Shown here piece by piece: positions 23,730 through 48,158 of a stretch of DNA of 64,000 nt. How positions within the stretch are numbered: position 1 is the stretch's first letter; each line of letters starts with the position of its first letter. The DNA comes from a virus. Its lineage: Duplodnaviria; Heunggongvirae; Uroviricota; Caudoviricetes. The position numbers and the translations under genes were made by a program. The stretch lies in the IMG/VR virus record IMGVR_UViG_3300043024_000042, one strand, 5' to 3'. A model generated the notes under the pieces. The model worked only from the letters and a program-made list of their open reading frames with translations, was not told where the DNA came from and made no database searches.

Positions 23730-23795
23730 ATTGCTTGTTTTAAAGGGTTAATAATCGCTGGAGGGTAGCGTACTACCGCAAGCCCTCCATAATAC

Positions 23796-24353: not shown

Positions 24354-24413
24354 AATCTAATTATTTTAGGGTTAATAATCGCGAGGCGGGCGGCTATCAA
24401 ACCGCCATCCTCT

Positions 24414-24963: not shown

Positions 24964-25025
24964 ATCTCTAAAATTTATTGGTTACACATCGTATGCACCG
25001 GGCCTGCCAAAGCCCGGCACACAAT

Positions 25026-25830: not shown

Positions 25831-25898
25831 ATCAATTCTTCTTTTAGGGTTAATGAATAATTGCGGAATAGCGGACTTGTTCAGCCCGCTAAACCATG

Positions 25899-26267
25899 TC
25901 ACTTGCTCATCTCCTTAATGGCTTTTCGCAACATCTCAATATCGCCAATGCACGGATCACCATCCTCGAGCGGCCAGTAGTACGCTCCATTCGGGATGTA
26001 GATGCGGTCAGAGAACTCGGTCTTATCAACATCCGTAATGAAGAGGAACTTTACCTTGTCCTTGATATACCAGAACCAATATTCAGTCCATTCCCAATCT
26101 TCTATCTGATGGTGGCTTATCTCACAGAACTTGTGGACGTTCTTGATGTCGTCGCCACAAAGTTTGAATAACTTGTCGATGCCTTCCCAGGCCTTGGCGA
26201 TGTTCTTAGCCTTTTCTACGGTCATGCGTTCACGCTTTGCATCTTGCAATGAATCTTCTCTTGTCAT
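25899..26267 (-). CDS. hypothetical acidic protein, 122 aa
   Basis: Upstream element at 26272-26290. Confidence 0.4.
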   Translation of the reverse strand: MTREDSLQDAKRERMTVEKAKNIAKAWEGIDKLFKLCGDDIKNVHKFCEISHHQIEDWEWTEYWFWYIKDKVKFLFITDVDKTEFSDRIYIPNGAYYWPLEDGDPCIGDIEMLRKAIKEMSK

Positions 26268-26332
26268 AATCTAATAATTTAAATGGTTAAACAATAGCCA
26301 GCCGGTATGATGCCACTCATACCGACCCTTCC

Positions 26333-26545
26333 TTAATGCAGAAGTTTCTCAATCTCGAATCGCAACAAGTTTTTAGTGAGAGCCTTGCCTCCACATAACA
26401 CACCATTCAGAATACATGAGAACTCATAACCGGGGATTGGAGCCATGTGGCTTGTAAACGCAATGGCAATGCTGCGCTTATACTTTCCAACCTGCTCATC
26501 GTTGAGGATAATCCTTCCGTCATGTGATAATGTCAAATGATTCAT
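26333..26545 (-). CDS. small hypothetical protein, 71 aa
   Basis: ATG at 26545 (MNHLTLSHDG) downstream of the element at 26553-26570. Confidence 0.4.
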   Translation of the reverse strand: MNHLTLSHDGRIILNDEQVGKYKRSIAIAFTSHMAPIPGYEFSCILNGVLCGGKALTKNLLRFEIEKLLH

Positions 26546-26609
26546 AATACAATGTTTAAATGGGTTAATATCGCAGCCGATGCGGTTACTGCACCGCAAG
26601 GGCTTTCAA

Positions 26610-27005
26610 TCAACATCCGTACTCGCTGATTGCCGTGAGAATCAGGCTGCCGATTTGATTGTACTCTGCTTTAAAGGCTATCTGCTTTAACGAGCCGAAC
26701 GAGCCAAGCAACTTCAAGCAGTAGTCCTTCAAGAACTCGTACTCTTCCACGTACTGAGTCTTATCGCTTACGGAGTGGAGAATCTGCAAGTCGATTACGT
26801 TATCCAACTCGCTTTCAAAGAATCGGTCAAACGTGATGTAGTCATTCAGGTAAACCAAGTAGAGGTTGGTACACCAATTCCCATCGCAATAACTGCGCTC
26901 ACTGCCGTACCTTTCCTGATTTTCCTTGCTGAACTTCTCGCTGCATTGCTTTATGAACTCTGCAACCAGCTGCCCTCTTCTTTTCTTCTTGATGATGAAT
27001 TGCAT
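26610..27005 (-). CDS. hypothetical protein, 132 aa
   Basis: ATG at 27005 (MQFIIKKKRRGQ). Confidence 0.4.
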   Translation of the reverse strand: MQFIIKKKRRGQLVAEFIKQCSEKFSKENQERYGSERSYCDGNWCTNLYLVYLNDYITFDRFFESELDNVIDLQILHSVSDKTQYVEEYEFLKDYCLKLLGSFGSLKQIAFKAEYNQIGSLILTAISEYGC

Positions 27006-27064
27006 ATCTATTAATTTTGGTGAAACATCGTACCCGTCCGCAGTGTCACCCACGGACGGACTTT

Positions 27065-27388
27065 CTACAACTTCGATAGGTTCACTTCATCGAATCTTTT
27101 AAAGAGGGCCTTGATGATGTCGTAGAGGGCAAGTATAGCACCCAGCGTGCATTTCTCATCCTCCGCACTGAACCAAGGTTTCTTTCTCGCGTAACCGTAG
27201 AAACTTTTCAGACATCGCTGCCCAATCTCCGAATCGGCTACCTCCTTCATGGTTATCACATTACCTCCGCTCGTCAGGTACACCCTTAACGCTTTCTCCC
27301 GCAAGTCAAGATGGAGGTTTCCTTTGAACCAAGCGTCCTTGATGAAGTACAAGTACGCTGCCTTTCTTGTTTTTCGTGAGTATATCAT
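27065..27388 (-). CDS. hypothetical protein, 108 aa
   Basis: ATG at 27388 (MIYSRKTRK). Confidence 0.4.
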   Translation of the reverse strand: MIYSRKTRKAAYLYFIKDAWFKGNLHLDLREKALRVYLTSGGNVITMKEVADSEIGQRCLKSFYGYARKKPWFSAEDEKCTLGAILALYDIIKALFKRFDEVNLSKL

Positions 27389-27543
27389 GTCTTTCACTAA
27401 TAATGGTTTACTAATCTTGTAGCCGGGATAGGTATTACCCACATCCCGACCGATGGGATTTATAATCCCGAATCATGCGACAAATGTAGGCGATTAAATT
27501 TGAATCACCAAACAATTAACGCACTTTTAACACGCTTTTATAA

Positions 27544-28212
27544 TTAAGCGACAAAATCATACGGATCACCATTCTCTCGAAATTCAAGATCGCGCTCCTT
27601 TAGTTCTTCCTCCACAAACTCGTCGGTGCTACCGTATTCAATATCACGATTCCATGCTTTAATAAACCCGGAAACCGCCTTTTTAACTAAACTCTCATAG
27701 GTAGTTGTATTATCCGGATGTTTCATCCATTCGACGAACGGTTGTACAAGAGGGTAATCGCAATACAAACCAGTTAACCCACATTCATCATCTTCGTAGT
27801 ATGTGATTCGGCTTGTACGTGTCTTAGTCCTCCCGTCTTTGGCCTGATGCGGCCATAAATAATATTCCTTCATCCCAGATAGCGGGAAGATATTATTCTG
27901 CAAATACCTCCACAGTAACTTGCCATGAAGTTCTCGCAGATATATCGGGGTGTCCGTTCTCTCATCGAAAGAGAATATAAACTCATCGGCATACAGACCA
28001 CTCCACAAGATATTAAAACCGTCATACTCGTCGATTTCCACTCTGTAAAGTCCGAATATTTTTTCAAACTCTTTAAGTGATTCTCTGTAATCGCATCCAA
28101 CAGAGTCGTTGTTAAGTTCAGAAATCTGCTCACGGCTCTTCTTGATGGCTACTTTCTTTGATTTCTCACTCAATTCATTGAAATGGTACACGTTAAATTC
28201 AATCTTTCTCAT
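27544..28212 (-). CDS. hypothetical protein, 222 aa, Tyr/Trp-rich and acidic
   Basis: Upstream element at 28222-28240 plus hairpin. Confidence 0.45.
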   Translation of the reverse strand: MRKIEFNVYHFNELSEKSKKVAIKKSREQISELNNDSVGCDYRESLKEFEKIFGLYRVEIDEYDGFNILWSGLYADEFIFSFDERTDTPIYLRELHGKLLWRYLQNNIFPLSGMKEYYLWPHQAKDGRTKTRTSRITYYEDDECGLTGLYCDYPLVQPFVEWMKHPDNTTTYESLVKKAVSGFIKAWNRDIEYGSTDEFVEEELKERDLEFRENGDPYDFVA

Positions 28213-28286
28213 ATCAATAATTTTTAGGGGTTAAACATTGTCGTGCAGTCAGATTTTATTCTGGCCGCACATTAGGATGCAATCTA

Positions 28287-28598
28287 TCAGTGGCTGAAAT
28301 TAGGGTTATCCTTAATAAACACTAAGGCTACCCAAACATTTTCGGGCTGTACCTTGTTATTTAAGGAAACTACCAATCCATCAAGTTCCATTATGCCTAA
28401 GTTGTGCCCTCTGTTAATATATTCGGCTTCCACTTTGAAAGACTTTTTAAGCCGATTATATAAGTCACTCAAATTGTCGAAACGCTTATCAAAGAACGCA
28501 TCGTCAAAACCTTGCCTGTCGATATCCGCTTGCCCGATTCGCATAGGACATTCAAAGAAATACGGTCTGTAACCGTCTTTTGTCAATAATGTACTCAT
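28287..28598 (-). CDS. hypothetical protein, 103 aa
   Basis: Variant upstream element at 28608-28625. Confidence 0.4.
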   Translation of the reverse strand: MSTLLTKDGYRPYFFECPMRIGQADIDRQGFDDAFFDKRFDNLSDLYNRLKKSFKVEAEYINRGHNLGIMELDGLVVSLNNKVQPENVWVALVFIKDNPNFSH

Positions 28599-28660
28599 GA
28601 TCTAAATGCTTAATTGGTTAATATTGTTACCCGACACGCTGCCACACGTGCCGGATAATG

Positions 28661-29425
28661 TTAGGCTGCGATGCTCATGTACTCATAAGCCGCGTCATAC
28701 ACCTCTTTACACTCTTTCTCTCCGTACTCACTGACAAACCCATCATTCTCTTTAATCCATCCCCAATAGTAGCCGTAGTTTAAGTCGTCGCAGCAATTAG
28801 CGAAGAAGTCGCGCTGCCAAGAATTGCGCTCGTACTTATTGATTAACTCATCCATACGCTCCATACGCTTGACCTCTTCATTATCGCCTGCACGAAGTTC
28901 CTCTATATCCTCGATGAATACGGTGGCATCCTTGCAGTTGTCGTTCTTGACGTGTACCAGGGTAAGATTTTCCCATAACTCATCCTCGATTCCGATTACT
29001 TTGTAGATTCCGTCATAAACATCCTCGGCACCAAATACTCGGACGTAAGCACCAACTTTCAAGAACGGATATTCCGCTCTCAGTCGTCTGTCCTCTTTTA
29101 CCTCTTCGGGGTCGTCCTTGACAAACGGATCCTCGTCGATGTAGTTCCACCAGTAGTCAATCAGGTGGCTATCGTCGTCGTAGTCGTACCAATCTGCCCT
29201 TGCAAAGTCCCCGTCATTCTTGTGGGTATCGTTATACTCATCCGCAATCTTTTGCAGGTAGTCGGTGTACCCTTCAAAGAAGTCAAGAACCGATTCAGTT
29301 GTAAGTTGCAGATTGTTGCGGTAGTCACTGTAATCCATACTGCCAATGCGGACCTGCTTTCTCAACTCAATCAAACCTTTGTCAGTTAAGCAACCATTCT
29401 CGTCAAAATACTCTTTCTTTTCCAT
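28661..29425 (-). CDS. large acidic Trp/Tyr-rich protein, paralogous C-terminal domain to 25399..25830
   Basis: Net charge strongly negative (YDDDSHLIDYWWNYIDEDPF). Upstream element at 29438-29455. Confidence 0.45.
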   Translation of the reverse strand: MEKKEYFDENGCLTDKGLIELRKQVRIGSMDYSDYRNNLQLTTESVLDFFEGYTDYLQKIADEYNDTHKNDGDFARADWYDYDDDSHLIDYWWNYIDEDPFVKDDPEEVKEDRRLRAEYPFLKVGAYVRVFGAEDVYDGIYKVIGIEDELWENLTLVHVKNDNCKDATVFIEDIEELRAGDNEEVKRMERMDELINKYERNSWQRDFFANCCDDLNYGYYWGWIKENDGFVSEYGEKECKEVYDAAYEYMSIAA

Positions 29426-29496
29426 GTCTATAATGTTTTAGGGGTTAATAATCGCTGAGCGGACACTTATTAGAGCAATCCGCCCAAAATTGTAGT

Positions 29497-29850
29497 TTAA
29501 GCTGAGTGATACCTTTTAACATTATTCCATACTAAGTTGGCCCATGTGCTATTCCAGGTAGAGTTTGCATCCTGCTCGGTGAGGAAATTGAAGATGCCCT
29601 CGGCACCATCTATTCCTCGCACGAATGTTTTTCTAACCTGAATCGTAAACTCACGTTTCTCGTCCACTTTTACATCATACGTCCTTGTCTCTCCGTCCTT
29701 GGTGATGGACAGTAGGTTGGGATTTCCGTTGTAGATGGAGATTTGCCAATTCACGTCATGGTAGCCGATGCACTTATGTTGTACTTGGCCATTCTCCATG
29801 GGAATCACTTCAAACTCGTGTTTACGCTCTACAAAATTCATACTTGCCAT
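29497..29850 (-). CDS. hypothetical protein, 118 aa
   Basis: ATG at 29850 (MASMNFVERKH). Upstream element at 29862-29880. Confidence 0.4.
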   Translation of the reverse strand: MASMNFVERKHEFEVIPMENGQVQHKCIGYHDVNWQISIYNGNPNLLSITKDGETRTYDVKVDEKREFTIQVRKTFVRGIDGAEGIFNFLTEQDANSTWNSTWANLVWNNVKRYHSA

Positions 29851-29913
29851 AACTAAATGTATTAGGGTTAATAATTGCTGAGCGCCCACCCGCCAAGGTA
29901 GCCGCCCATAAGT

Positions 29914-30201
29914 TCAGCGTGTTGCCAAGTCAATATTCAACCACGACCTTCTAACATCCGCTTGAATATCCACGTTCCCGTCCAGTGTTCTAAGGTAGAA
30001 GTGCTTTGTGTCCTTGTTAAACCATGTGTCGAATGTGCCACCATTATTCTTCAAACAATGATGAAAAAACTCGTACCGGTTATTCAGGCACTCCATCGCT
30101 TGCTGTTCGTTGTCGAATGTTGTCACTTCGGGTTTGTTAGTCACTCCAAGATAGGTGGAGATAATGACTACACTGAATAATGCTTTTGGATTCATATTCA
30201 T
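29914..30201 (-). CDS. small secreted protein with an N-terminal signal peptide
   Basis: MNMNPKALFSVVIISTYLGVTNKPEV. Upstream element at 30206-30224. Confidence 0.4.
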   Translation of the reverse strand: MNMNPKALFSVVIISTYLGVTNKPEVTTFDNEQQAMECLNNRYEFFHHCLKNNGGTFDTWFNKDTKHFYLRTLDGNVDIQADVRRSWLNIDLATR

Positions 30202-30259
30202 TTTAATTAGGGGTTAATAATCGCAGGCGGAACGTCTGCTAAAACGAACCGCCCATCCA

Positions 30260-30871
30260 TCATTCTTCTTGCCTGCTCTTTGCGATGCACATAGCACAGA
30301 AGTCACGTCCGACCCAGTTCTCGCTCTGATAGTCATAACCGCCCTGAAACTTGATTACGTTGCCAAGGAGGAACGTGTAATACACAACCTTTGGCGATTT
30401 CACGACTTTCATGCGCTCCTCATCGACTTTAAGGGGTTTCTCGCTTTCACGATACGTCTGCGTGAAGAACTGGGCGAAATCGCCATCATCCATGAATTCA
30501 TCAATTCGCAACACCACGTTCACTTCGTACCAACCGCTGTTCCATCTCATTTTCAACTCGCTGTAATCAACAAACTCATGGCGGTGTGCGGTCATAACGT
30601 AGTCTACGGTCTGCAAGACACCTCTCGCACTGCTTATGTCACTCTGCTCTGTCATTGGAAAGGCTTGCATGATTATGCCCAACTTCTTCGGTGTGAGTAT
30701 GTCCGTATCACTTTCACCACCGTAGAACTTAACATAGTACCTGCCGTCCTTAACCATGAAGATTGATGCGCGTACACCTTTCGGCTCGAGGTCGCGATTC
30801 AACTCATTTTCGAGTTTGGCGATTTTCAACTTTCGCTCGAACTCCGCTTTCATTTTCTCAATATCATTCAT
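30260..30871 (-). CDS. hypothetical protein, 203 aa
   Basis: Upstream element at 30880-30897. Confidence 0.45.
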   Translation of the reverse strand: MNDIEKMKAEFERKLKIAKLENELNRDLEPKGVRASIFMVKDGRYYVKFYGGESDTDILTPKKLGIIMQAFPMTEQSDISSARGVLQTVDYVMTAHRHEFVDYSELKMRWNSGWYEVNVVLRIDEFMDDGDFAQFFTQTYRESEKPLKVDEERMKVVKSPKVVYYTFLLGNVIKFQGGYDYQSENWVGRDFCAMCIAKSRQEE

Positions 30872-30935
30872 ACGTTCAATATTAAAGGGTTAAACAATGC
30901 AGGCGACCCGCTTATCAAAGCAAGTCGCCATTCTT

Positions 30936-31277
30936 TTACGAGAATTGGTGAATGTGCTGGCGCAACCATTTTGTTTCATCGGGCCAACTTTGCCCTGCAC
31001 AATAGGTTGCTCTACCATCTAAATCAATCCACAATCGCTCGCATAGTCCACACGATCTATACAAAGTGTATAAGTCGTCTTTCTTTCGCAAATCAATAGT
31101 CTTAGCGAAGAGATTAACAATTTGCGTGCGCGCCTCGTCGGATAGTTGGAAACGCACCCATTTACGCTTTTTTGTGTAAATTGCACCAGCAATAAAGTTA
31201 TGCAGCGTAAGTCTGCCATCTCTCGTTTGTGCGATTAAGCCTTTCAATGTCTTGTAATTCCTTGTAATCATACTCAT
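30936..31277 (-). CDS. hypothetical basic protein, 113 aa
   Basis: Variant upstream element at 31295-31310. Confidence 0.4.
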   Translation of the reverse strand: MSMITRNYKTLKGLIAQTRDGRLTLHNFIAGAIYTKKRKWVRFQLSDEARTQIVNLFAKTIDLRKKDDLYTLYRSCGLCERLWIDLDGRATYCAGQSWPDETKWLRQHIHQFS

Positions 31278-31355
31278 TTGAATTTAGTGAAACATAGGGT
31301 TAATATAGTAGCCGTGCAGATAGTTAAACCTGCATGGCCTAAGTCTGAATACAAA

Positions 31356-31784
31356 TTAGAGGTAATCCGGAATAAATTCAAGAAGTTCCTTGATAGACGT
31401 GGAATCATCGTTTAAATCATGTTCCAAATCCTCTCTGTACTTATTAATTTCGGAAGGTTGGAGGTTGCGTAAAATATCCCAAAGGAATTTGCGCTTTTCC
31501 TTTCGTTCGGTCGGCATCAGGTCGTTCTCCCACATATCGGGATTGCAATCCATGCCCCAATCTTCAAAAAGTCTGCGTTTCGCTCCAAAGCTTAAAAGTC
31601 GCGCGGAGTGTACCTTGCAGTACAAACTTACGATTTTAAAGACTTTATTTAAGCGCCCGTTCTCATTTTGTGTCCGAAAATTGAGACACCCGTAATCACG
31701 CAGTGCCAAATCATAATGTAATTCCTTAATGCGCTTTTCCTGCTCCAGCAGTTCGCGCGGAGTTCTTTTCCTTATCATACTCAT
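31356..31784 (-). CDS. hypothetical protein, 142 aa
   Basis: Upstream element at 31790-31808. Confidence 0.4.
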   Translation of the reverse strand: MSMIRKRTPRELLEQEKRIKELHYDLALRDYGCLNFRTQNENGRLNKVFKIVSLYCKVHSARLLSFGAKRRLFEDWGMDCNPDMWENDLMPTERKEKRKFLWDILRNLQPSEINKYREDLEHDLNDDSTSIKELLEFIPDYL

Positions 31785-31842
31785 TCATTTTAGGGTTAAT
31801 AATGCAGGCCCGCGGGTTGTCACACCACGTCGGGCCGTTCGC

Positions 31843-32103
31843 TCATCGAACGTGAAGGTTAACTTCCTGGATCGTATACAAGTTCTCGATACCATCCTTG
31901 AACTTAAAGGTGGCGCACCACGTTTCTTTATCGTAGTGGCCTACACCGTCGTTAAAGTCGTGACCGAGTTGCTCCAGCAAGTTCCGGATATACTCTTCGG
32001 CAAGTTCCAATTCACCAAAGCGTTCGCGCCAACATTCATCCCATGTACGGGAATCGGGGTCGTAGGTTTCCTCTATCACCTCGTAGATTTTCTTAATAGT
32101 CAT
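31843..32103 (-). CDS. small acidic protein, 87 aa
   Basis: ATG at 32103 (MTIKKIYEVIEETYDPD). Upstream element at 32112-32130. Confidence 0.4.
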   Translation of the reverse strand: MTIKKIYEVIEETYDPDSRTWDECWRERFGELELAEEYIRNLLEQLGHDFNDGVGHYDKETWCATFKFKDGIENLYTIQEVNLHVR

Positions 32104-32167
32104 AATGTTTGCTTTTAAAGGGTTAATAGTCGATGCCGCCCACCAAAGGGCAGGCACCGGAGGTCGT

Positions 32168-32497
32168 TCAGGCGAAATAAATCTGGCACATATTGTTCGC
32201 ATTACGGAAATAGTGCAGTGAATCACGGAACGGATCCATGATTCGTTTCACCCGCTCGCTGTCCTGCTTGCAGATTTTCACGATGATATTGCTCAGGGAA
32301 CGCACCCTGAATTCGAGAATGGCGGAACGCTTGTGCAGTTGACGGTAGTCGTTCAGCGTTTTCTTACACACGCTCGCTCTGCGCAAATTGTTCAGTGAAT
32401 TGGTCACGCTCTCAATCTCATCATACATTCTGTCCATCACAGCCAGGGCACGGCGCTCGTTGAACGTCATACCCGATTCGTCAATCTTTCTATTCAT
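32168..32497 (-). CDS. hypothetical protein, 109 aa
   Basis: Variant upstream element at 32505-32525. Confidence 0.4.
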   Translation of the reverse strand: MNRKIDESGMTFNERRALAVMDRMYDEIESVTNSLNNLRRASVCKKTLNDYRQLHKRSAILEFRVRSLSNIIVKICKQDSERVKRIMDPFRDSLHYFRNANNMCQIYFA

Positions 32498-32664
32498 ATC
32501 TATAAATTTTATTGGTTAATTATCGTACTCCGTGATTGTTTTACCAATAACACGGAGCTGGGGTTAATCAGAGGTCGAAAATCGGACTCCACTCAAAACT
32601 ATCTTCCAGTTCGGGAAGGTACACCAAATTACCGTTCATTACCATTTCCGCGTTCATAATCCGT

Positions 32665-32817
32665 TCACTTTAAAGATTCCACATAACACATTACACTCAC
32701 ACTGCCAAAGAAACACAGCAGGAATACGGCCGCGCTTACATAGGAATTACCGAATAAGGGTGTTGCGAGAATACCCAGGGCGAGCAGATAACGCACGCAG
32801 TTCATAAACTTCTTCAT
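32665..32817 (-). CDS. small membrane protein, 50 aa, not in the ORF track
   Basis: ATG at 32817 six nt downstream of the element at 32823-32842. MKKFMNCVRYLLALGILATPLFGNSYVSAAVFLLCFFGSV. Confidence 0.4.
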   Translation of the reverse strand: MKKFMNCVRYLLALGILATPLFGNSYVSAAVFLLCFFGSVSVMCYVESLK

Positions 32818-32881
32818 ATCATTTGTTTTTAGGGGTTAATAATCGCACCGCGGGGAATTGTCGTACTCACCCGCGGCCATC

Positions 32882-33160
32882 TTAGCAAGGGCGCCAGCCG
32901 TTTCTCGTCTGCCAGTAGGCCGATTCAATCAAATATTCAGCCAGATTGTTCGCCGCCTCTTTCATCTCGCCCTCATCGGGTCGCTCATCGCACATGGGCA
33001 CGGCATCTGCAATCATCTGGCGAACTTTCAACATTCGCGCCACGGCTCGTTTTACCGGATTCTCGCCTCTTACAATCTGTTTTGCCAAGAGGAATATCAC
33101 ACGGTCCATCCGGGCCTCAAACTTACGGTCGTTCGTGACCACTACACTCAGTACTTCCAT
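32882..33160 (-). CDS. hypothetical protein, 92 aa
   Basis: Upstream element at 33168-33188. Confidence 0.4.
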   Translation of the reverse strand: MEVLSVVVTNDRKFEARMDRVIFLLAKQIVRGENPVKRAVARMLKVRQMIADAVPMCDERPDEGEMKEAANNLAEYLIESAYWQTRNGWRPC

Positions 33161-33226
33161 ATCATTTAATTTTAGGGGTTAATAATGTATCCGTGTGAAT
33201 TATCGTACTCACACGGAATTCTCGTA

Positions 33227-33448
33227 CTACGGAGGCAGGCCTATCAAGTCGGTTTCCCTGAACTTGTAGGCCGCAAGCAATTCCCGTACATCTTTACTCA
33301 GTTCAACCCGTGGAATCATAATGAATTCGTTCGGCTGAACACGCAGCTCAACCACCTTAATAAGGTAGTGCAGGACAAAAGCCAGATCACTCGTGGAAAT
33401 CTGACTTGCTTTTACTCTGTACGCTTTTCTCGTACTCATTCGTATCAC
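33227..33448 (-). CDS. hypothetical protein, about 71 aa
   Basis: GTG at 33448, or ATG at 33439. Variant upstream element at 33455-33475. Confidence 0.35.
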   Translation of the reverse strand: MIRMSTRKAYRVKASQISTSDLAFVLHYLIKVVELRVQPNEFIMIPRVELSKDVRELLAAYKFRETDLIGLPP

Positions 33449-33533
33449 ATCTATTTTAAGGGTATTTTAAGGCCCGCCAGTGAGTTTTCACACTCAAAGG
33501 CGGTAAAGTGTACGCGCGGGGAATAAAACGCGC

Positions 33534-33830
33534 TTAAATCGCAGTTTTCAGCCGTGCGTAATTACGTTTCGCCTCGTTCAGGCCGTTTGCCAGTTCGCAG
33601 ATTCTTCTTGCAAGGTTCTTGCAAGCGTTCTCCACCTCGTAGGGCGCAACCTGTTCGGGTATCCGTTCGATGAAATCATCTACAATCGCATGAAGTTGGT
33701 TGAATCGTGAAACGGTGCGCGCGTTCATTACGCTGCCGCCCTCTTCGATTTTGATCGCTACGTACTCAATGATTCTCATAATGCGGCCCATGTAGTTACC
33801 GCTCTTCCAGATTCTTTCTTCGATTTTCAT
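33534..33830 (-). CDS. hypothetical protein, 98 aa
   Basis: Upstream element at 33838-33858. Confidence 0.4.
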   Translation of the reverse strand: MKIEERIWKSGNYMGRIMRIIEYVAIKIEEGGSVMNARTVSRFNQLHAIVDDFIERIPEQVAPYEVENACKNLARRICELANGLNEAKRNYARLKTAI

Positions 33831-33899
33831 ATCATTTAATTTTAGGGGTTAATAGTGCAGCCCTGCCGGTTGTCACACCATGCAGGGCCGAAGAAAGAT

Positions 33900-34025
33900 T
33901 TACGCTATCTTTGCAACCGTCCAGTTCAAAGATTCTGCATACTCACTCAACACGTTTTTATCCGTGTCAATCATTCTCACTTGATTCTGTTCGTCCAGGA
34001 GTCCGAATAATTCATTTTGTTTCAT
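33900..34025 (-). CDS. small protein, 41 aa, not in the ORF track
   Basis: ATG at 34025 directly downstream of the element at 34030-34048. MKQNELFGLLDEQNQVRMIDTDKNVLSEYAESLNWTVAKIA. Confidence 0.35.
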   Translation of the reverse strand: MKQNELFGLLDEQNQVRMIDTDKNVLSEYAESLNWTVAKIA

Positions 34026-34093
34026 ATCACAAATTTTTAGGGGTTAAACAATAAGTAAGCGAACCACCGGTAAGAGTGATTCGCTTTAATCGT

Positions 34094-34405
34094 TCAGGCG
34101 ATTTTTACTTTGATTCCATGCGCCTGGAGTTGTTCGGCTGTAAAACCGTATCGAATGATTTTCTTTTTAAGTGATTCGATAAAACACTTCTTTTGATAGT
34201 CAAACTCTTCTTGATCCAGTTGCCCGTTCAAAAATCGTTCGCGCGCACCTTTCAGCGTATCGTAGTCAATAACCGCTGAAAGCAGATTAATTTCAGGCGA
34301 GCCGAATTCAAGGTGTTTTCGTTCGCCCCGCTCGTTCGGCTCGTTTGCGGCACGGCGCAAATTCATCTTTGCTTTTCGCTCGTACCAGTCCATCATTCCT
34401 AACAT
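34094..34405 (-). CDS. hypothetical protein, 103 aa; first gene of the minus-strand block next to the candidate origin
   Basis: Upstream element at 34412-34432. Confidence 0.4.
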   Translation of the reverse strand: MLGMMDWYERKAKMNLRRAANEPNERGERKHLEFGSPEINLLSAVIDYDTLKGARERFLNGQLDQEEFDYQKKCFIESLKKKIIRYGFTAEQLQAHGIKVKIA

Positions 34406-34435
34406 ATCATTTAATTTTAGGGGTTAATACTAAAT

Positions 34436-35456
34436 CGTTCGGCCGGATCGTTCATTTAACAAAACCGTTCATCAACCGTTCGGCCACAATGAACCCGCCG
34501 CCGGTGCAAACCAGTAGCGGGCAAACCTATTTCATTTTCACAAAATCGTAGGGGCAAAATGTTTGATAGCGCCGTTAACCCTACGGCAAAACACCTTGCA
34601 GGGCGCCCCTGTTTTCGCAAATTAGAGCGCCTAATTAGATATGATATATACCGCGGTGTAGCCTGAGCCACACCACGGCGGGGATTATACGGGCCACGGG
34701 CGCGCGTGCCCAAATAAAAAGTTATCATAATAAAATGCACATATATCAACCGCACATATATCAACCACACGGGCACGAACTACCCGGCCGTATATTTCAG
34801 CCCCCCGCTCCGCTACATAATAACCCGGTACCGATACACCACGTTTCCACCTTTCGATCATCCAGCACATTCACCACCGCACCCCCATCTAAATCGACTT
34901 GTATACGGCCGCACGTTGTGCGCGCCCTTGTATATAGTATCTCTTTATCCGGTGCCCACCACCACCGAAGTGGCGGAGGGTTAAGCAAATAGCGCTTATC
35001 CCGTCACCTTGTCAGTACGTGGGGCACGCTATTTGTCAAGTGTTTAAGTGGGTAGCACCTGGGGCAGCACGGACTCCCCGGGGACTTTTAGTTATTATTA
35101 CACTTTGTTTTTCAGGCCGACCCCATCAAGTGGGGCCCCTTTGATGTCAGTCCGACGGGCAAACCACGGCGCCCAACTCGTGGGCAGTTGTGGGCTACTT
35201 AGCAACCAGCAACCAGCTCCGGGCACGTCTAAGCGGGTAGCTAGGCCGCCCCACGTTGTGGGCGCGGCACCCCGCAAGGAAGTACCAGGACATGAGCAAC
35301 CCCGCACGTTGTGCGGCAGTATGCAACCGGAGGCGGTGACCTTTGGCCATCCGTCAGTAATAGAGCGCTTTTTTTTTGATAGTTGGCGGGCGGGGAGTCG
35401 GACCCCGCAGAAGAGCACCGGCACCGCCAGAGCCGCACGAGGCGGCAGGGCCTATA
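34436..35456. promoter_or_regulatory. repeat-rich non-coding region: candidate replication origin or regulatory hub
   Basis: CGTTC repeated 4 times at roughly 11-bp spacing (34440-34495). A 13-bp tandem repeat GCACATATATCAACC occurs twice (34737-34764) beside an AT-rich stretch. CACGTTGTG occurs 3 times (34912, 35246, 35306). GGGCACG occurs 3 times. Several GC hairpins and a T9 run at 35369-35377. The only ORFs here are overlapping ones typical of GC-rich non-coding DNA. Confidence 0.35.
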
Positions 35457-36380
35457 TTAGGCCACGAGTTTAGCGGCGAGCACGGCCGCAAGCTCAGGCT
35501 CTACACCGCCATCGACGAGCACGGCCGCAGCGTCAGCCAGAGCGCGGGCACGCTTTTCGGCGGCTTCCTTTTCGGCGGCCTCCTTGTTAGCCATGTCAGA
35601 GGTTGCAGCCCGATAGTCCCTGTTAACCTTTTCGGCCGCGCGGATACCACGTTTTTCGGCACGCTCTAGACGCTTTTCTGCTGCGACCTTAGCGCGGATA
35701 GAGGCGAGCACGCCACGGACGCCGTAGACGGCCACACCGCGAGCGTCAACCACGCGCCCGTAATAGTCTAGCAGGCAGTCAGACAGTACCAGCTTATTAT
35801 AAGGCACGAGGCGCAGCACGTCGAGCACGTGTTTTTCATCATCCGTCAGATCCTGGCAGGCTGCAACCTTAGCGCGGGCGGTCTTAGCAATCTTGTTAAC
35901 CAAGTTGATAGATTTGGCCGGGCTTAGTTGATCCGCATCCACCACGGCCGCGCGACGCTCAGCGCACTTTGCTAAGTAGGACGAGTAAGCCGCATCCGAC
36001 AGAGCCGCGAGGCGGGAGGACTGCAGGGTGATAGCGTCAGCGGCAGCAGCATCCGCCAGAGCCGCGGGCACCTCATCCGCCATACAGTCAGTAACCGCGA
36101 TATATTCGCGGACAGCGGCGGCGGCCGAAGTATCGGCAGCGACGGCGTCAGCGTCAGCCAGAGCGAGGGCACGCAGAGCGTAGAGGCGCGGGGATACTTG
36201 CAGCGACGCGGGTACGGAGTCGGCCGCACGTTTGACGACGAGCTCCGGAGATTGTGACGAGATAGCCACGTATACACGAGCATTAGAGGACGCAGACGCG
36301 GGAGCTACAGACTCAGAGGTCGCAGGGGCAGCGACTCCTAATACATTCACTGATTGATTGTTTCTTTCTTCAGTTTTCAT
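35457..36380 (-). CDS. alanine-rich (about 30% Ala) coiled-coil protein, function unknown
   Basis: Gene-strand upstream sequence ATTATTAACATTTAAATACAAAAGATTATG is a variant of the early-gene element. Very GC-rich coding sequence, so the ORF could be partly an artefact of GC richness. Confidence 0.4.
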   Translation of the reverse strand: MKTEERNNQSVNVLGVAAPATSESVAPASASSNARVYVAISSQSPELVVKRAADSVPASLQVSPRLYALRALALADADAVAADTSAAAAVREYIAVTDCMADEVPAALADAAAADAITLQSSRLAALSDAAYSSYLAKCAERRAAVVDADQLSPAKSINLVNKIAKTARAKVAACQDLTDDEKHVLDVLRLVPYNKLVLSDCLLDYYGRVVDARGVAVYGVRGVLASIRAKVAAEKRLERAEKRGIRAAEKVNRDYRAATSDMANKEAAEKEAAEKRARALADAAAVLVDGGVEPELAAVLAAKLVA

Positions 36381-36971
36381 AATCTTTTGTATTTAAATGT
36401 TAATAATAAATTGACTTCTATTACAAATTTACCACTTTATTTTAATACCTCAATCATATACGCAAAGAATTTGGGGAGTATTTTAGTTAAAATCCGAAAA
36501 AAGTTATAAAACGCTGAAAATAAGGTAGTTATAATAGTCGATATGCTACACTTGTAATATTTAAAAATAGCCGGTACCCCCCCCAATTATAGATATAAAA
36601 AATTTGACCCTTGACCTCCAAAATATTTTTCCCATCTTAAATTTTCCCCAATCCAATTTTTTCCATTTCCCCAAATATCCATTTCCCCAGCTCTAAATTC
36701 CCGCTCAAAGATTTTTTCTCAAATCTTGACACGTTTACATTCCTTAACACTATTTTAACATTACGAAGGTATGTTTAAATATTGCTAATATGTTTGCGAT
36801 ATTGTATGACATTGCTATCTTTGGCACATCGTAACATGGTTGCGTAACCATTTGGGTTATATGGAAATTACGCAGATTACGTATTTATACCCTATCCCCC
36901 TTATCTCCCGCGTTTGTGGATTTGTATATGGGCCAGAATAGAAGTATTAATTTTATATAGCCCGAAAAATT

Positions 36972-38498
36972 TTGACAAAATTGTTTTTCGACATGGCATA
37001 CAAGGCAAAGACGAACTTCAACTACACTCCCAAGTGCGCGGAGATGACAGAACTGGCGGTAGGCAACCTGCGGGATGTCTACTCGCGTGACGTATTCCGC
37101 ATGGTGGAAGGGGTAAGGGGTTACTCCGAGCAGGCCAATGCCCTGTGCAAGTTTATCAAGGGTGCTTTCCGTGCGGCTGCTTTCGGGGTCTACAAGGGTC
37201 AGATACATTTCTTCACGGGTAAGATCTACGAACCGGTGCCTGCCTTTGTGATGAGGGACATCGTGAGCCAGTTCCTTGACGGGCTAGGTATCTCCCCGCG
37301 TCTGTTGTTGAAGTACGGGGACAACAAGTTCTTCTGGGAGGCGCAGCGCGCCTGCTACTACAATCCCTTGCAGCCCTCGTTCCATCTCATGTCGTTCAGG
37401 AACTGTGTGGTGGATATGTCCACCGTGACGCAGTACCCGCATGACCCGAGATACCACTGCGTGTACCTGCATGACTATGACTTTGACATGACCGCGGAGT
37501 GTCCCACGTGGAAGGCTTTCCTAAAGAGGATGCTTCCCGACAAGGCATCCCGCCAGATATTGCAGATGTACCTCTCGCTGGCCCTCGTCGACAGAAGTTC
37601 CATGACGATGAAGGTGGAGAGCTGCCTCTGCTGCTACGGCTCCGGCTCCAACGGCAAGTCCGTTGTGTTCGAGACCGTGTGCGGGCTGTTCGGGCGGGAG
37701 AACATAGGCATGTCGGGTGTCGAGGCCATCATCTGCGGACGGGGCGACGAGCAGCTCCGGGCCGCCGCCGCCATCGACGGGATGAGATTGCTGTACTGCT
37801 CCGAGGTGAACAAGAAACTGGCGGTGGGGGACTCATCCTCGCTTTTCAAGAAATTCGTGTCGGGCGAGCCGATACAGGGCAGACTGATAGGGCAGGACGA
37901 GTATACCATATACAACATACCCTATCTCGTGATGAACCTGAACGACAGGATAGACACCGGGGACAACTCGTATGCGATAACCAGGCGGTTCATAGAGCTT
38001 GACTTCCCGGTGAGGATCACGGAGGAAGAGAAGGACATGGGACTGGCTGGGAAGATAGCGAAGGAATACACGGGGGTGATGGCATGGCTCGTCCGCGGGA
38101 TGAGGAATTTCAAGGCCAACGGGTACCGGTTCCCGCAGTCGCAGGCTACCGAGATGGCCAAGTTCAAGAACCTGGCATACTCCGACCCGTTCTACGCATG
38201 GACCACCCTCTCGCTCATGCGCGACAAGCCGCTGAAACGGAACGAGGAAGCGCAGAAATACGCGGTGGCCGACCTCTTCGCCAGCTACGTCGCCTTCTGC
38301 GAGCTGAACGGGCTTGACTACGTGAACCTGCTGATGTTCGGACGCAAGATGGTCAAGGCGGGGTTCACCTCGCGGAGGGAGAACAAGACCACCAACTATA
38401 TCATCTACGGTGACTTCGACATACAGAGGGTGCCGGAGCTGGCCGACAAGGAGGTTTACGACATACCCGCCGTGGAGGAAGAGGAAGAGTTGTACTAA
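36972..38498 (+). CDS. phage/plasmid primase-helicase (P4/D5-type SF3 NTPase)
   Basis: Walker A YGSGSNGKSV, a Walker B-like LLYCSEVNK and an acidic C-terminal tail. 508 aa at about 60% GC. Confidence 0.7.
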   Translation: MTKLFFDMAYKAKTNFNYTPKCAEMTELAVGNLRDVYSRDVFRMVEGVRGYSEQANALCKFIKGAFRAAAFGVYKGQIHFFTGKIYEPVPAFVMRDIVSQFLDGLGISPRLLLKYGDNKFFWEAQRACYYNPLQPSFHLMSFRNCVVDMSTVTQYPHDPRYHCVYLHDYDFDMTAECPTWKAFLKRMLPDKASRQILQMYLSLALVDRSSMTMKVESCLCCYGSGSNGKSVVFETVCGLFGRENIGMSGVEAIICGRGDEQLRAAAAIDGMRLLYCSEVNKKLAVGDSSSLFKKFVSGEPIQGRLIGQDEYTIYNIPYLVMNLNDRIDTGDNSYAITRRFIELDFPVRITEEEKDMGLAGKIAKEYTGVMAWLVRGMRNFKANGYRFPQSQATEMAKFKNLAYSDPFYAWTTLSLMRDKPLKRNEEAQKYAVADLFASYVAFCELNGLDYVNLLMFGRKMVKAGFTSRRENKTTNYIIYGDFDIQRVPELADKEVYDIPAVEEEEELY

Positions 38499-41560: not shown

Positions 41561-43318
41561 TTATTGTCGCTTTTTATCAAAATCATCCCAGTTATTCTCT
41601 CCTAAGAAATTGCCGTTCTTGTCCCACGTCTTTCCGCTCTTGTTGGGTCTGCCAGGCCTGCGTCCGCGACCGCCCGTATTGACATTACCCTGGTATCCCT
41701 GCGTCTTTCTCTGCGGGGTGTCATTGGCCTTTGTTGGGTCGATATCGTTCTGTAACTGGGCCATAGTGGTCTGCACCTGACCGGTGGTGTTCACATCCCC
41801 GTTGAGGATCTGCGCGCCCATTGTCTGCTGGAGGTTGGCCAGCACATCCTGCTGCTGCTCTTCCTCGATCTCCGACTTGATGCGCTCAATCTCGTCATTG
41901 GTGGTGTATACACCCGCGCGCATGGATGCCGTGCGCTTCGACATGAACTTGTTCTGCACACCGAGCGCGAGGTTCTGCATGAGTTCGGCCACATTCTGCG
42001 GAACATAAGGCTCGATCCACACATTCATCTTCAACGCTGCGAAGTCAAGGGTATGTTCCGTCTCCACTCCGTATCCATATCTGAATATCTCAACAACCCC
42101 GTCGATGAACTGCGCGAAGTCGTTGCTGTCTACCGTAGCCTGCTCGATGGCCACATGGAAGAGCAGACGGATGGATGATGAGGGTGTATCACCTGATTTC
42201 AACTCCACGTTCTTCACGCACTTGCTCTGCTGGTAGATGGCATCCTCGAGCATATCCAGCTCGGACTTGTAGGACGAGGATGCGTCCTGACGCTGCAAGA
42301 AGCCCGCCTCGCCGTCCTCGGGGATAGTCACCACCTTTACCGCGTTGTTCATGTCTCCCACAACATCGACACCCTCCCCTTTGAGATACATGATAGGTGT
42401 GCCGAAGGCATGGTTGCTCTGCGCGAGCCGTGAGAAGGCAATCTCGTAATTGTCGATGCTGTCCTGCGACTGCGACCAGCACGCACCCATATCGTTTCGG
42501 TGGTACACTACCGGGATGCGGGGGAACATGTGCTTCTTTCTCTCCACAATCTCATATCCGCTCTGTCCGTAGATGCTCTTGATGGAGTTGAGTAAGCGGT
42601 CTATCCTTGTCGCCTCTCCGCGTTTTAGACGGTAGTAATACTCATTATCCCACACCTCTATCCACGAGGTCACTGTGATGCCATCCTTATCCACATCTGT
42701 ATACTCGCGCGCGAGGCAGTTCAGGTCTCCCGTCTCCGGGTCAAAGTGGGGATAAATCTTGTCACCCTTCTCGTAGGAGAAAACGCGCCAGCCGAACTTG
42801 CCGTTCTTAAGATAGCCGACAAAGGCGGTATCTCCGGTCGCCTTGACAGCTCGAGCAGCCTCGTACCATGCCACCTCCATGCCTTTGTTGAGCCACCCGA
42901 GTCGGAAGGTTTGGAACATCTGCTCCTGATTCTCATTCTCTTTCGTGGATAGCAGCTCGAACTGAACATCATTCGCGCAGAGGTGTGTGAGTTGCTTGGT
43001 GAGGATGTCGTACTGGAAGCCGAAGGCATAGCGCGGCACTTCCTCCACGAACCACTTCCCACTCTCCGGGTCCTGCCGCCAAATGTCGGGATAGTACTGC
43101 TTGTTCCAAATCATGTGGCCGTTCTTGTCAAGCTCGCGCAGGAAGTCGGCCTGCGTCACGATGTCGAACAGCGGCTGGTCGCCCTGATAGGTGTTCAGGC
43201 TCTTTTCCCGGTCCCTCGTGAAGCCACCGCTATGATACCCTTCCGGACGGATGCGCACGAAGGGCGGCTTCAACAGCAGGTCTTGTATGCCCTGCTTAGT
43301 CAAACTTAAATTCTCCAT
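41561..43318 (-). CDS. putative portal protein
   Basis: 585 aa, immediately downstream of the terminase large subunit. Gly/Arg-rich basic C-terminal tail. Confidence 0.5.
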   Translation of the reverse strand: MENLSLTKQGIQDLLLKPPFVRIRPEGYHSGGFTRDREKSLNTYQGDQPLFDIVTQADFLRELDKNGHMIWNKQYYPDIWRQDPESGKWFVEEVPRYAFGFQYDILTKQLTHLCANDVQFELLSTKENENQEQMFQTFRLGWLNKGMEVAWYEAARAVKATGDTAFVGYLKNGKFGWRVFSYEKGDKIYPHFDPETGDLNCLAREYTDVDKDGITVTSWIEVWDNEYYYRLKRGEATRIDRLLNSIKSIYGQSGYEIVERKKHMFPRIPVVYHRNDMGACWSQSQDSIDNYEIAFSRLAQSNHAFGTPIMYLKGEGVDVVGDMNNAVKVVTIPEDGEAGFLQRQDASSSYKSELDMLEDAIYQQSKCVKNVELKSGDTPSSSIRLLFHVAIEQATVDSNDFAQFIDGVVEIFRYGYGVETEHTLDFAALKMNVWIEPYVPQNVAELMQNLALGVQNKFMSKRTASMRAGVYTTNDEIERIKSEIEEEQQQDVLANLQQTMGAQILNGDVNTTGQVQTTMAQLQNDIDPTKANDTPQRKTQGYQGNVNTGGRGRRPGRPNKSGKTWDKNGNFLGENNWDDFDKKRQ

Positions 43319-48141: not shown

Positions 48142-48158
48142 AGTAGGAGGACAGAATC

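Follow-up and report, generated by a model that had tools for sequence, protein, structure and literature searches.

An acceptor stem joined to a T arm is the minimal shape that is recognised by the tRNA-processing enzymes. Minihelices of this type serve as model RNase P substrates, and RNase P-type processing has been described for the phage RNAs P1/P7 C4, P4 CI and phi80 M3 and for the t-elements of plant mitochondria (PMC5499578). The three coliphage RNAs are phage-encoded, lie in the untranslated leaders of early operons and are cut from early or leader transcripts by host RNase P; they are hairpin-like and have no T-loop equivalent, and P4 also encodes an alpha-type helicase (PMC5499578). 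In the t-elements and in mascRNA (MALAT1/MEN-beta 3′ end), a tRNA-like structure with acceptor stem, T arm and T-loop is embedded in a longer transcript, its other arms are reduced or missing, and the tRNA-processing enzymes make the ends of the mRNA or lncRNA. The tRNA-like module of the bacterial YrlA RNA is closed by a loop, is joined to a Ro60-binding helix and lies next to the rsr gene. YrlA, a Y RNA-like tRNA mimic, occurs in phages too (PMC4201824). The tRNA-like domain of tmRNA, YrlA and the element described below all join an acceptor stem to a T arm and a D-like element and lack an anticodon arm.

The locus is a gene-free interval of 1051 nt (positions 34406-35456) in an uncultivated Bacteroides-type phage; the window is the whole 64-kb stretch of DNA that was analysed. 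It was compared among the window (lineage A), its sister lineage (B), a third, positionally orthologous lineage (C, with members C1 and C2) and two more distant lineages (D and E). The original prediction described positions 34436-35456 as a GC-rich, repeat-dense and non-coding region that would be either a replication origin or a large structured RNA. Its right-hand boundary holds, but the non-coding DNA already begins at 34406. The upstream neighbour is an Ala-rich 208-aa gene on the minus strand (stop codon 35457-35459), and the downstream neighbour is a 103-aa gene on the same strand, the first of a block of small genes. The model of the 208-aa protein is of too low confidence for use (pLDDT 59), and that of the 103-aa protein (pLDDT 75) shows a bundle of helices for which no significant match to a known fold was obtained.

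There is indeed no credible ORF, as every one is of the overlapping, multi-frame type. Lineages A and B share no conserved ORF (matching stretches shift frame and do not exceed 28 aa), Pfam gives no match for any of the ten longest six-frame stretches, and the JGI gene callers left the interval empty in independent assemblies; neither an in-frame ORF kept among relatives nor a protein-family similarity was found. Two other contigs carry the sequence with 100% identity and a third carries it with 99.2% identity, which shows that it is not an assembly artefact. It matches none of 50,697 phage records at the DNA level, and no annotated or cultured close relative of the phage group was found in the searches made.

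The GC content of 54% is high compared with that of the gene block on the left (41–47%), but the genes on the right are equally GC-rich (55–69%). Repeats exceed those of shuffled sequence: 13 different 7-mers are present at least three times (about 2 in dinucleotide shuffles) and 20 different 9-mers at least twice (3.5 in the shuffles). GGGCACG (three copies) and GGGTAGC (two copies), which had been listed as repeat families, are at chance level, and a 7-mer that occurs three times is found in 82% of the shuffles. The reported tandem pair is real, although its unit is a 15-mer (34737-34751 and 34752-34766) rather than a 13-mer. The GC hairpins also exist, but they are thermodynamically unexceptional, with z-scores in sliding windows (mostly −0.3 to −3) similar to those of the flanking coding DNA. 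A DGR template or other dispersed repeat was considered and rejected, since no part of the interval except the gene-start motif has a second copy elsewhere in the 64-kb window. A GC-rich, repeat-dense and ORF-free kilobase is not by itself evidence for a large structured RNA or an origin. The interval contains the following features:

34403-34428, minus strand: start region of the 103-aa gene, with the motif TTAACCCCTAAAATTAAATGAT and then the ATG
34436-34493, unstranded: four CGTTC(A/G) repeats with an inverted GTTCAT (34488-34493), abutting the first small gene and kept in B to E
34493-34522, minus strand: GC hairpin GCCCGCUACUGGUUUGCACCGGCGGCGGGU, invariant between A and B
34571-34587, minus strand: conserved hairpin GCCGT-TAACCCT-ACGGC
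34630-34647, minus strand: part of the gene-start motif in inverted orientation, an island conserved between A and B
34651-34712, unstranded: insertion specific to lineage A, with a GC hairpin at about 34695-34711, absent in B
34713-34766, unstranded: AT-rich stretch (34713-34736) and two exact tandem copies of the 15-mer GCACATATATCAACC (34737-34766), neither kept in B
34794-34941, unstranded: fast-evolving segment, about 61% identical to B
34897-34938, unstranded: two-tier hairpin H1, core CAC-GTT-GTG at 34910-34922, inner and outer stems paired in B through double-sided changes
35085-35120, unstranded: AT-rich island, 82% identical between A and B over 35093-35120
35233-35275, unstranded: extended hairpin H2, core 35250-35262, three pairs changed on both sides in B
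35296-35324, unstranded: hairpin H3, core 35302-35316, two pairs changed on both sides in B
35369-35377, unstranded: run of nine T (nine A on the minus strand), not kept in B and with no terminator hairpin before it
35429-35384, minus strand: tRNA-like element that lacks an anticodon arm and follows the upstream gene directly
35432-35463, minus strand: hairpins GCCGC-ACGAG-GCGGC and GGCCTATATTAGGCC where the upstream gene ends, the latter of which holds the stop codon

A spacer of this kind is carried by lineages A, B and C only, as a GC-rich, ORF-free interval of 0.83–1.05 kb at the same position. Between A and C, the upstream flanking proteins (208 and 201 aa) share 41% identity (E = 9e-11) and the downstream ones (103 and 80 aa) share 36% (E = 4e-10), which makes the spacers positionally orthologous; no blastn similarity is detected between the A and C spacers themselves. 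Lineages D and E have the CGTTC array and neither the tRNA-like element nor the GC-rich kilobase, which indicates that the spacer is dispensable for this type of phage. Three parts are under selection: the tRNA-like element, the CGTTC array and the three triloop hairpins H1 to H3. The interval is most likely neither one large RNA nor a proven origin but a patchwork spacer. We tentatively interpret it as a composite, untranslated leftward intercistronic spacer that would combine a tRNA-like processing signal with a downstream control array.

In A, B, C1 and C2 alike, the tRNA-like architecture directly follows the stop codon of the upstream gene. In the window it consists of a 6-bp acceptor-like stem, a 15-nt linker that contains a small hairpin with a GG loop, a 6-bp T stem and a 7-nt loop (UCCGACU). 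The 3′ acceptor strand stacks directly on the T stem, which gives 12 bp in total in A and B and 13 bp in C. Each sequence adopts this shape at its minimum free energy, with z-scores between −1.4 and −3.4. The T-loop reads correctly on the minus strand only and has the form YYCGAYU, being UUCGAUU, UCCGACU, CUCGAUU or UUCGACU according to lineage, with a C at position 55 in lineage A. The comparison covers three lineages with four distinct tRNA-like sequences. All six differences between A and B fall in loops or in the linker, and 90 bases in a row (35421-35510), including both gene-end hairpins, are identical between the two. When A/B and C are aligned by architecture and not by program (the MAFFT register is one column off), four of the six acceptor pairs and two of the six T-stem pairs are changed on both sides and all are still Watson-Crick, which amounts to six double-sided changes with no broken pair. 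A scan of 1.03 Mb on both strands with a strict descriptor returned only these loci and one unrelated phage contig (L011), which had been retrieved through a T-arm sequence pattern. In this high-GC contig, the same element lies between an HK97-type capsid gene and the next ORF, which hints that the tRNA-like class is widespread.

The element has the shape of the t-elements and mascRNA, a coaxial acceptor and T arm of about 12 bp with a 7-nt loop of the UUCGAnn type. mascRNA is also its best Rfam match, although the scores on the minus strand (14.2 bits in the window and 23.8 bits in L002) are well below the gathering threshold of the mascRNA-menRNA family (RF01684; 42.5 bits). The t-elements and mascRNA are eukaryotic or organellar and share no sequence kinship with the phage element, which lacks any anticodon stem and whose processing is putative. 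Compared with the coliphage substrates, of which C4 is an antisense RNA, it has a canonical T arm and loop, and no antisense target was found for it. The loop closure of YrlA and its Ro60-binding helix with the neighbouring rsr gene are both absent. In tmRNA the acceptor strands lie about 300 nt apart around the tag ORF, in contrast to 33–34 nt here; ARAGORN finds no tmRNA, and the Rfam tmRNA match is a T-arm fragment of 12.8 bits only. Nor is the element a tRNA gene: the only one found by ARAGORN is tRNA-Met (46527-46600), no tRNA match is obtained in the interval of A and B at E ≤ 10, and the only tRNA-clan match of lineage C is to tRNA-Sec, at 16.4 bits (gathering score 47) and in an alignment that omits the D, anticodon and variable arms. 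The element is followed at its 3′ side by ACU (A and B) or CUU (C) instead of CCA.

It is hardly credible that the tRNA-like piece belongs to a phage attachment site and represents the 3′ terminus of a host tRNA gene. The phage encodes a tyrosine integrase, its relatives are temperate (PMC8525569), and in other viral contigs tRNA-Ile genes terminate in GCGGGGTYCGAYTCCCCGCCCGCC. However, a search of 185,579 species, each represented by one genome, gave no exact match, a distance of 12.5 kb separates the element from the integrase gene, and an attP core would not need the 5′ acceptor strand and the D-like hairpin, which are both kept and covary in all lineages. The miniature tRNA would most likely serve to punctuate the transcript. 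That anticodon-less miniature tRNAs of about 45 nt form an undescribed class of punctuation in phage operons, cut by host RNase P and RNase Z, and that the element also makes the 5′ end of a long, G-rich untranslated RNA before the early genes, is conceivable but doubtful.

In contrast to the element, the centre of the spacer has diverged rapidly. The central 580 nt are 44% identical between A and B, with indels of 50–60 nt, compared with 58–72% at third codon positions. The centre evolves faster than third codon positions, shows no detectable sequence constraint and may lack function. This rate is what a largely functionless stretch would display, in which a decayed gene or an internally deleted tRNA gene persists in a GC-rich module and only the flanks are selected. 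The lineage-specific insertions, homopolymer runs and tandem duplications fit such a history, as do the relatives that carry tRNA arrays (8 tRNA genes in the LoVEphage stretch examined) and the fact that D and E manage without the spacer. We nevertheless consider it quite unlikely. The stems of the tRNA-like element covary with no broken pair even though the flanking proteins are only 36–41% identical, and unbroken covariation across such diverged lineages is not expected of a pseudogene. Furthermore, the three hairpins stay paired by means of double-sided changes, no trace of protein similarity remains in any frame, and about 1 kb has been retained in three lineages.

The sequence CACGTTGTG, reported as a three-copy repeat, occurs exactly three times in the 64 kb (34912, 35252 and 35305), each time inside the interval. 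The window has four triloop hairpins of the form AC-NNN-GT whose stem reaches 5 bp or more, and three of them are these copies. The three CAC-GTT-GTG triloop hairpins are confined to lineages A and B and show compensatory changes in B. The strand on which they act is signalled in a contradictory manner by the counts of G-U and A-C pairs: H1 is more stable on the plus strand in both A and B, and one plus-strand helix stays paired through G-U changes. The triloops, together with an ORF of 3268 aa, also prompted a comparison with the hairpin promoters of N4-like virion RNA polymerases, which was rejected because the ORF encodes the tape measure protein.

Two conserved islands nearer to the small genes show complementarity to the gene-start motif, which also precedes other minus-strand genes (10 genes at 22.8–34.4 kb carry TTAACCCCTAAAATTAAATGAT upstream). 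The loop of the 34571-34587 hairpin, AGGGUUA on the minus strand, is complementary to UUAACCC of the shared motif, and 34630-34647 can pair with 34404-34421, over the AUG of the 103-aa gene, with unexceptional energy. Antisense control of the motif by these islands is a weak idea and was set aside, as the duplex energies are ordinary in comparison with the rest of the minus strand in lineage A.

The retention of an ORF-free, GC-rich interval of 0.83–1.05 kb in three lineages of compact phage genomes could also reflect a discrete new large structured RNA of about 0.3–1 kb on the minus strand, with a 5′ end made by tRNA-type processing. In A, B and C alike, about 270–290 nt separate the tRNA-like element from the AT-rich island, and in lineage C the island likewise lies at a similar distance (about 340–380 nt) from the end of the upstream gene. 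The minus strand is richer in G than in C (on the plus strand, 34800-34899 is C-rich and G-poor, with a GC skew of −0.6) and folds better than the plus strand in B (−126 versus −103 kcal/mol) and in C (−131 versus −81 kcal/mol); moreover, hairpins show compensatory changes between A and B. A single RNA of this size is very unlikely all the same, since the interval does not surpass the flanking genes in folding z-scores, the poorly conserved centre is interrupted by large indels, no common fold or hairpin family links A/B with C, part of the lineage C spacer is low complexity of the GGUC type, and nhmmer found nothing in 80 distant relatives (a profile of the A/B spacer alignment searched against 80 distant helicase loci). 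GOLLD and ROOL, which are also long, GC-rich and ORF-free phage stretches and often lie near tRNA genes, had been named as models to be scanned with Infernal, and neither matches at E ≤ 10; in contrast to them, the interval shows no conserved core and no strong folding signal. At gathering scores, Rfam detects only tRNA-Met in the window, and at E ≤ 10 it detects nothing beyond weak tRNA-like fragments in the A, B and C intervals. Neither a conserved core nor covarying long-range helices were found among the three lineages compared. What survives of the large-RNA proposal is the set of small, structured and selected pieces, namely the tRNA-like element and the three hairpins.

At the other end of the spacer, the four reported copies of CGTTC are present (34436, 34449, 34466 and 34477), but the claimed helical-turn spacing is not, as the intervals in lineage A are an irregular 13, 17 and 11 nt. 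The motif is CGTTC(A/G), or GAACG on the mRNA-sense strand. It occurs four times in A, B and C, seven times in D and in several clusters in E, and the clusters abut the first small gene in all five lineages. Conservation of the repeats in related phages had been set beforehand as a test, and the array is kept in five lineages, which is a cluster of direct repeats conserved among relatives, as expected of an iteron origin. The other components of the origin proposal fared less well. The AT-rich stretch at 34713-34736 and the tandem 15-mer, proposed as the unwinding element, are both missing from sister lineage B; an AT-rich region does adjoin the array (34403-34435), but it can be accounted for by the gene start. 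The cumulative GC skew has no turning point within 34.4–35.5 kb and thus gives no sign of a strand switch; a local minimum lies at about 36.9 kb and the global extremes at about 20 and 46–47 kb.

The array could nevertheless be an origin or part of one, in which CGTTC(A/G) would serve as iterons for the P4-alpha-like helicase encoded 2.5 kb away and the AT-rich gene start would melt; 32633-32666 would be a second cis site, in analogy to P4 ori plus crr. The type-1 iterons of P4 ori/crr (TGTTCACC) are likewise 8-mer repeats with a GTTCA core in at least two separated clusters of a replicon with an alpha-family helicase, and CGTTCATC and CGTTCAAC share a GTTCA-C core with the P4 type-1 repeat as annotated in NC_001609. 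The window helicase aligns to residues 407–742 of the 777 residues of P4 alpha (probability 98%, E = 2e-13), and because the alignment includes the C-terminal part of alpha, an iteron role of the array is possible. The 508-aa protein lacks the N-terminal part of alpha, the site of its primase domain, and no solved structure related to the helicase was found by sequence. The five lineages that keep the array share a helicase of the P4-alpha type (primase/helicase identity 36–100%), and the array is absent from LoVEphage, where other repeats (tatacat-type) lie near the helicase. P4 uses two separated repeat clusters as well, and the spacing in lineage C (21, 22 and 19 nt) corresponds to about two helical turns. 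On the other hand, CGTTC arrays or pairs are found in many intergenic gaps of the small-gene block, always in one orientation and 2–136 nt from a start codon, whereas P4 iterons are present in both orientations; binding of the helicase to the copies here is putative. Across 3 kb of coding DNA the 5-mer is also 4–9 fold enriched, for the most part in a single reading frame. The AT-rich gap directly upstream of the helicase gene (36381-36971) has conserved repeats of its own and is a more typical AT-rich repeat region, and an origin would cover at most about 60 of the 1051 nt. An origin role of the array is rather unlikely, although it is still a serious rival to the composite reading.

In the composite-spacer model that we prefer, the spacer would be transcribed as part of a minus-strand operon that runs from the Ala-rich 208-aa gene into the small-gene block. 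The RNA directly after the upstream stop codon folds as a miniature tRNA, which the host enzymes would cut, RNase P on the 5′ side and RNase Z or a different 3′ enzyme on the 3′ side. The upstream mRNA would thereby receive its 3′ end, with two terminal hairpins, and the downstream leader would be freed. The next 0.8–0.9 kb would be a filler that evolves fast, forms many hairpins and has an excess of G over C on the transcribed strand. In A and B the three sequence-specific triloop hairpins, which are likely protein sites, lie within this filler, and the composition of the filler would make a long untranslated RNA a poor substrate for Rho. The spacer ends with the four GAACG/CGTTC repeats and a structured leader by the first small gene. 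This array may act as a clade-wide control site, either as an operator or 5′-UTR signal of the small genes or as the place where the P4-alpha-like helicase binds.

The shaping of mRNAs by the tRNA machinery has precedents in mitochondria, in MALAT1 and in a few coliphage regulatory RNAs, and we know of no description of a processing element with a T-loop inside phage operons. If the miniature tRNA is a processing signal, tailed phages of Bacteroidota-type hosts borrow the tRNA-maturation machinery of the host to shape their mRNAs. Its descriptor, simple and easy to search with, would then also help to locate mRNA boundaries in the genomes of uncultivated phages. The CGTTC/GAACG arrays present across the clade, whose motif resembles the P4 alpha iteron, offer a concrete handle on replication or early-gene control in this group of phages.

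The interval 34406-35456 is a real, non-coding, repeat-rich and composite spacer. Its ORFs are only overlapping, multi-frame ones, independent public annotations predict no gene in it, no ORF is common to the window (lineage A) and its sister lineage B (longest matches ≤28 aa, frame-switching), and none of its ten longest six-frame stretches matches Pfam, which bears out the original prediction that no credible ORF lies here. Two other assemblies carry exactly this spacer sequence, and a third matches it at 99.2% identity. The window is a tailed-phage genome with a major head protein among its recognisable genes, which include:

21883-22860, minus strand, tyrosine integrase
34094-34405, minus strand, 103-aa gene, left neighbour of the spacer and first gene of a small minus-strand gene block
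35457-36083 (JGI call), minus strand, Ala-rich gene, right neighbour of the spacer
36972-38498, plus strand, D5_N/DUF5906 helicase of the P4-alpha family
41561-43318, minus strand, SPP1-type portal
43306-46011, minus strand, large terminase with a LAGLIDADG-type intein
46527-46600, initiator-type tRNA-Met (C1xA72; ARAGORN), the sole tRNA
52494-62300, plus strand, tape measure protein, a single ORF of 3268 aa with the tape-measure domain at residues 949-1209

A length of 3268 aa is unusual for a tape measure protein. The closest annotated phages are the LoVEphage group, temperate Bacteroides phages (PMC8525569), with identities of ~43% for the portal and ~29% for the helicase. The phage group is rare; homologues of both flanking proteins are confined to lineages A and B (IMG/VR 3300035522_000046) in protein searches, and a helicase-based search reaches lineages C (60% identity), D (40%) and E (36%). 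The flanking proteins of lineage C are homologous to those of lineage A, and the slot between them holds an ORF-poor spacer of 834 nt (55% GC), which has no nucleotide similarity to the lineage A spacer and in which JGI calls one ORF (82 aa, plus strand). Elsewhere in lineage C, an intein is also present in the 1376-aa helicase/methyltransferase gene of contig L103 (11721-15851), and its 1028-aa counterpart in contig L104 lacks it.

The best-supported functional element of the region, which fixes its sense strand as minus, is the following:

35384-35429 (lineage B contig L002, 1046-1090), minus strand, tRNA-like element without an anticodon arm, starting 26 nt past the stop codon

The lineage A element (minus strand) reads UGGCGG-U-GCCGGUGCUCUUCU-GCGGGG-UCCGACU-CCCCGC-CCGCCA-A. 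A 6-bp acceptor-like stem is followed by a linker with a small hairpin that has GG in its loop, and by a T arm with a 6-bp stem and a 7-nt T-loop; the 3´ acceptor strand runs on from the T stem without a gap, giving 12 stacked bp, as in tRNA. The T-loop of lineage B is the canonical UUCGAUU. In lineage C this architecture recurs ~10 nt past the stop codon, with stems GACCGC/GCGGUC and GGGCGGG/CCCGCCC and loops CUCGAUU or UUCGACU. Between A/B and C, four of the six pairs in the acceptor stem and two of the six in the T stem differ on both sides, and no pair is broken. A differs from B at six positions, all of them in loops or the linker. The tRNA-like shape is the minimum-free-energy structure of each sequence. 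A strict descriptor scan of 1.03 Mb on both strands matches nothing except the loci of lineages A, B and C and L011 (IMGVR_UViG_3300032829_000136), an unrelated, high-GC phage contig that entered the scanned set through a T-arm pattern search. Its anticodon-less element (588-633, minus strand; GGGGCG ... GGCGGGG-UUCGAUU-CCCCGCC-CGCCCC) lies in a 110-nt gap that separates an HK97-type capsid gene from the following ORF, and stops 2 nt short of that ORF's ATG.

The element is neither a tRNA nor a tmRNA, ARAGORN being negative for both. No identical tRNA 3´ end occurs in 185,579 genomes, which rejects a host tRNA fragment and makes an attP here highly improbable. Position 55 of the T-loop is C (UCCGA) in both the tRNA-Met (46527-46600) and the tRNA-like element of lineage A, and lineage B has UUCGA in both its tRNA-Met (L002 12182-12255) and its element (L002 1046-1090). 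To our knowledge, U is almost universal at this position; such a rare change, seen in two T arms of lineage A that are unrelated to each other, suggests a pressure common to T-loops, or coincidence. Minihelices made of an acceptor stem plus a T arm are model RNase P substrates, and this is also how plant mitochondrial t-elements and the phage RNAs C4, CI and M3 are processed (PMC5499578). By analogy with these precedents, we infer a transcript-punctuation role for the tRNA-like element.

The GC content of the spacer is 54%, versus 41–47% to its left, and the right-hand genes are as GC-rich. The predicted repeat density stands overall, since repeat content exceeds the shuffled expectation and all three copies of the exact 9-mer CACGTTGTG in the 64 kb lie inside the spacer; GGGCACG and GGGTAGC, however, occur at chance level. 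Hairpin density had also been taken to allow a large structured ncRNA. A discrete new RNA of this kind is very unlikely: sliding-window folding z-scores on both strands are ordinary (mostly -0.3 to -3, the same as in neighbouring genes), and Rfam, which was to be scanned with large-RNA models, returned nothing but tRNA-like matches below threshold, all on the minus strand (mascRNA, 14.2 and 23.8 bits; tRNA-Sec, 16.4 bits, its middle arms missing). On the minus strand G outnumbers C, and in B and C this strand folds far more stably than its complement. This pattern fits an untranslated RNA that is transcribed, structured and resistant to Rho, although composition alone also suffices. A T9 run is not conserved and is no terminator.

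The A/B identity differs from one part of the spacer to the next:

left 245 nt, 83%
central 580 nt, 44%
right 226 nt, 77%
third codon positions of adjacent genes, for comparison, 58–72%

On this profile, sequence-level constraint is limited to the two ends. Indels of up to ~60 nt interrupt the central segment, yet it is collinear at ~61–69% identity in local alignments. That the spacer is largely a functionless remnant is quite unlikely. The far-left stretch, where identity is very high, may belong to a recently exchanged block. A/B identity rises from ~77% to 95–99% in the head-gene region (47452-48475 versus L002) and again at 34252-34535, jumps that point to recent mosaic exchange between the two lineages.

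Three stem-loops share a CAC-GTT-GTG core:

34897-34938, stem-loop
35233-35275, stem-loop
35296-35324, stem-loop

In lineage B, the loop and two closing pairs are unchanged save one loop G to T, and pairs 3–5 and the outer stems are altered on both sides with pairing kept. Hairpins that are read by a protein typically keep the loop and vary the stem, and the comparison suggests that these hairpins are protein-type and lineage-specific; the family was not found in lineage C. G-U pair evidence on their strand conflicts.

The four predicted CGTTC sites are present; they lie 31–76 nt upstream of the 103-aa gene start, at spacings of 13, 17 and 11 nt rather than at regular helical-turn intervals. 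Lineage C has four CGTTCA copies (spacing 21, 22 and 19 nt), the first 3 nt from the orthologous start codon, and TCGTTCATTT and CCGTTCATC are identical between A and C. Lineage D has seven copies in 90 nt, the first 2 nt from a start codon, and lineage E has several clusters; LoVEphage has no CGTTC arrays. The window contains another cluster:

32633-32666, second CGTTC cluster

One-strand enrichment over 31–34.5 kb reaches 4–9 copies per kb, versus ~1 per kb elsewhere. This 4–9-fold excess affects coding and non-coding DNA alike in the final ~3 kb of the small-gene block (31500-34481) and ends abruptly at the spacer, with no copy from 34482 to 37377. Lineage C repeats this pattern (L103 3000-6151), which also occurs on contigs of other diverged lineages (L110 2066-2154; L112 3379-3863).

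The motif resembles the P4 type-1 iteron TGTTCACC, annotated in ori and crr of NC_001609, and the window helicase is homologous to P4 alpha residues 407–742, C-terminal part included. This likeness to P4 makes an iteron role plausible for the array, the part of the original origin proposal that survives. The AT-rich stretch and tandem repeat (unit 15 nt, not 13), proposed as the unwinding element, have no counterpart in B and lie inside or beside a lineage-A-specific insertion. A replication origin, restricted to the array, is unlikely: every copy has one orientation, arrays recur in many gaps beside start codons, intragenic copies favour one reading frame, and cumulative GC skew does not turn here. 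A more classical origin candidate, whose existence also counts against the array, separates the divergent Ala-rich and helicase genes:

36381-36971 (L002 ~1990-2624; L103 7526-8000), AT-rich divergent gap, 31% GC, directly upstream of the P4-alpha-like helicase gene

The gap contains the local minimum of cumulative GC skew, and lineages A, B and C all retain its C-run and the AAAATTTTCCCC / ATTTCCCCA-type repeats that come after it. In LoVEphage MW660583, 8800-9540 upstream of the helicase operon is annotated as several 30–40-aa hypothetical proteins; it is likely non-coding AT-rich DNA with ctatacat-type repeats, an origin/control region mis-annotated as genes.

The array is otherwise read as an operator or 5´-UTR control array of the small-gene block. 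Ten small minus-strand genes (22868-34428) open with a near-identical 25 nt, TTAACCCCTAAAAnnnAnnGAT followed by ATG, with no Shine-Dalgarno sequence at these starts; these 25 nt are a translation-start or promoter signal common to the block. Two conserved left-part islands are complementary to this motif: one is the loop of the 34571-34587 hairpin, the other an inverted repeat at 34630-34647. Because the pairing energy is unremarkable, masking of the 103-aa gene start by these islands remains a weak idea.

We tentatively favour an untranslated spacer of the leftward operon. The tRNA-like processing element would punctuate this spacer at its start, fast-evolving structured filler with lineage-specific protein-type hairpins would make up its middle, and a CGTTC/GAACG control array found across the clade would close it. 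The mini-tRNA gives a known principle a new form, and is the part of the region worth an experiment.
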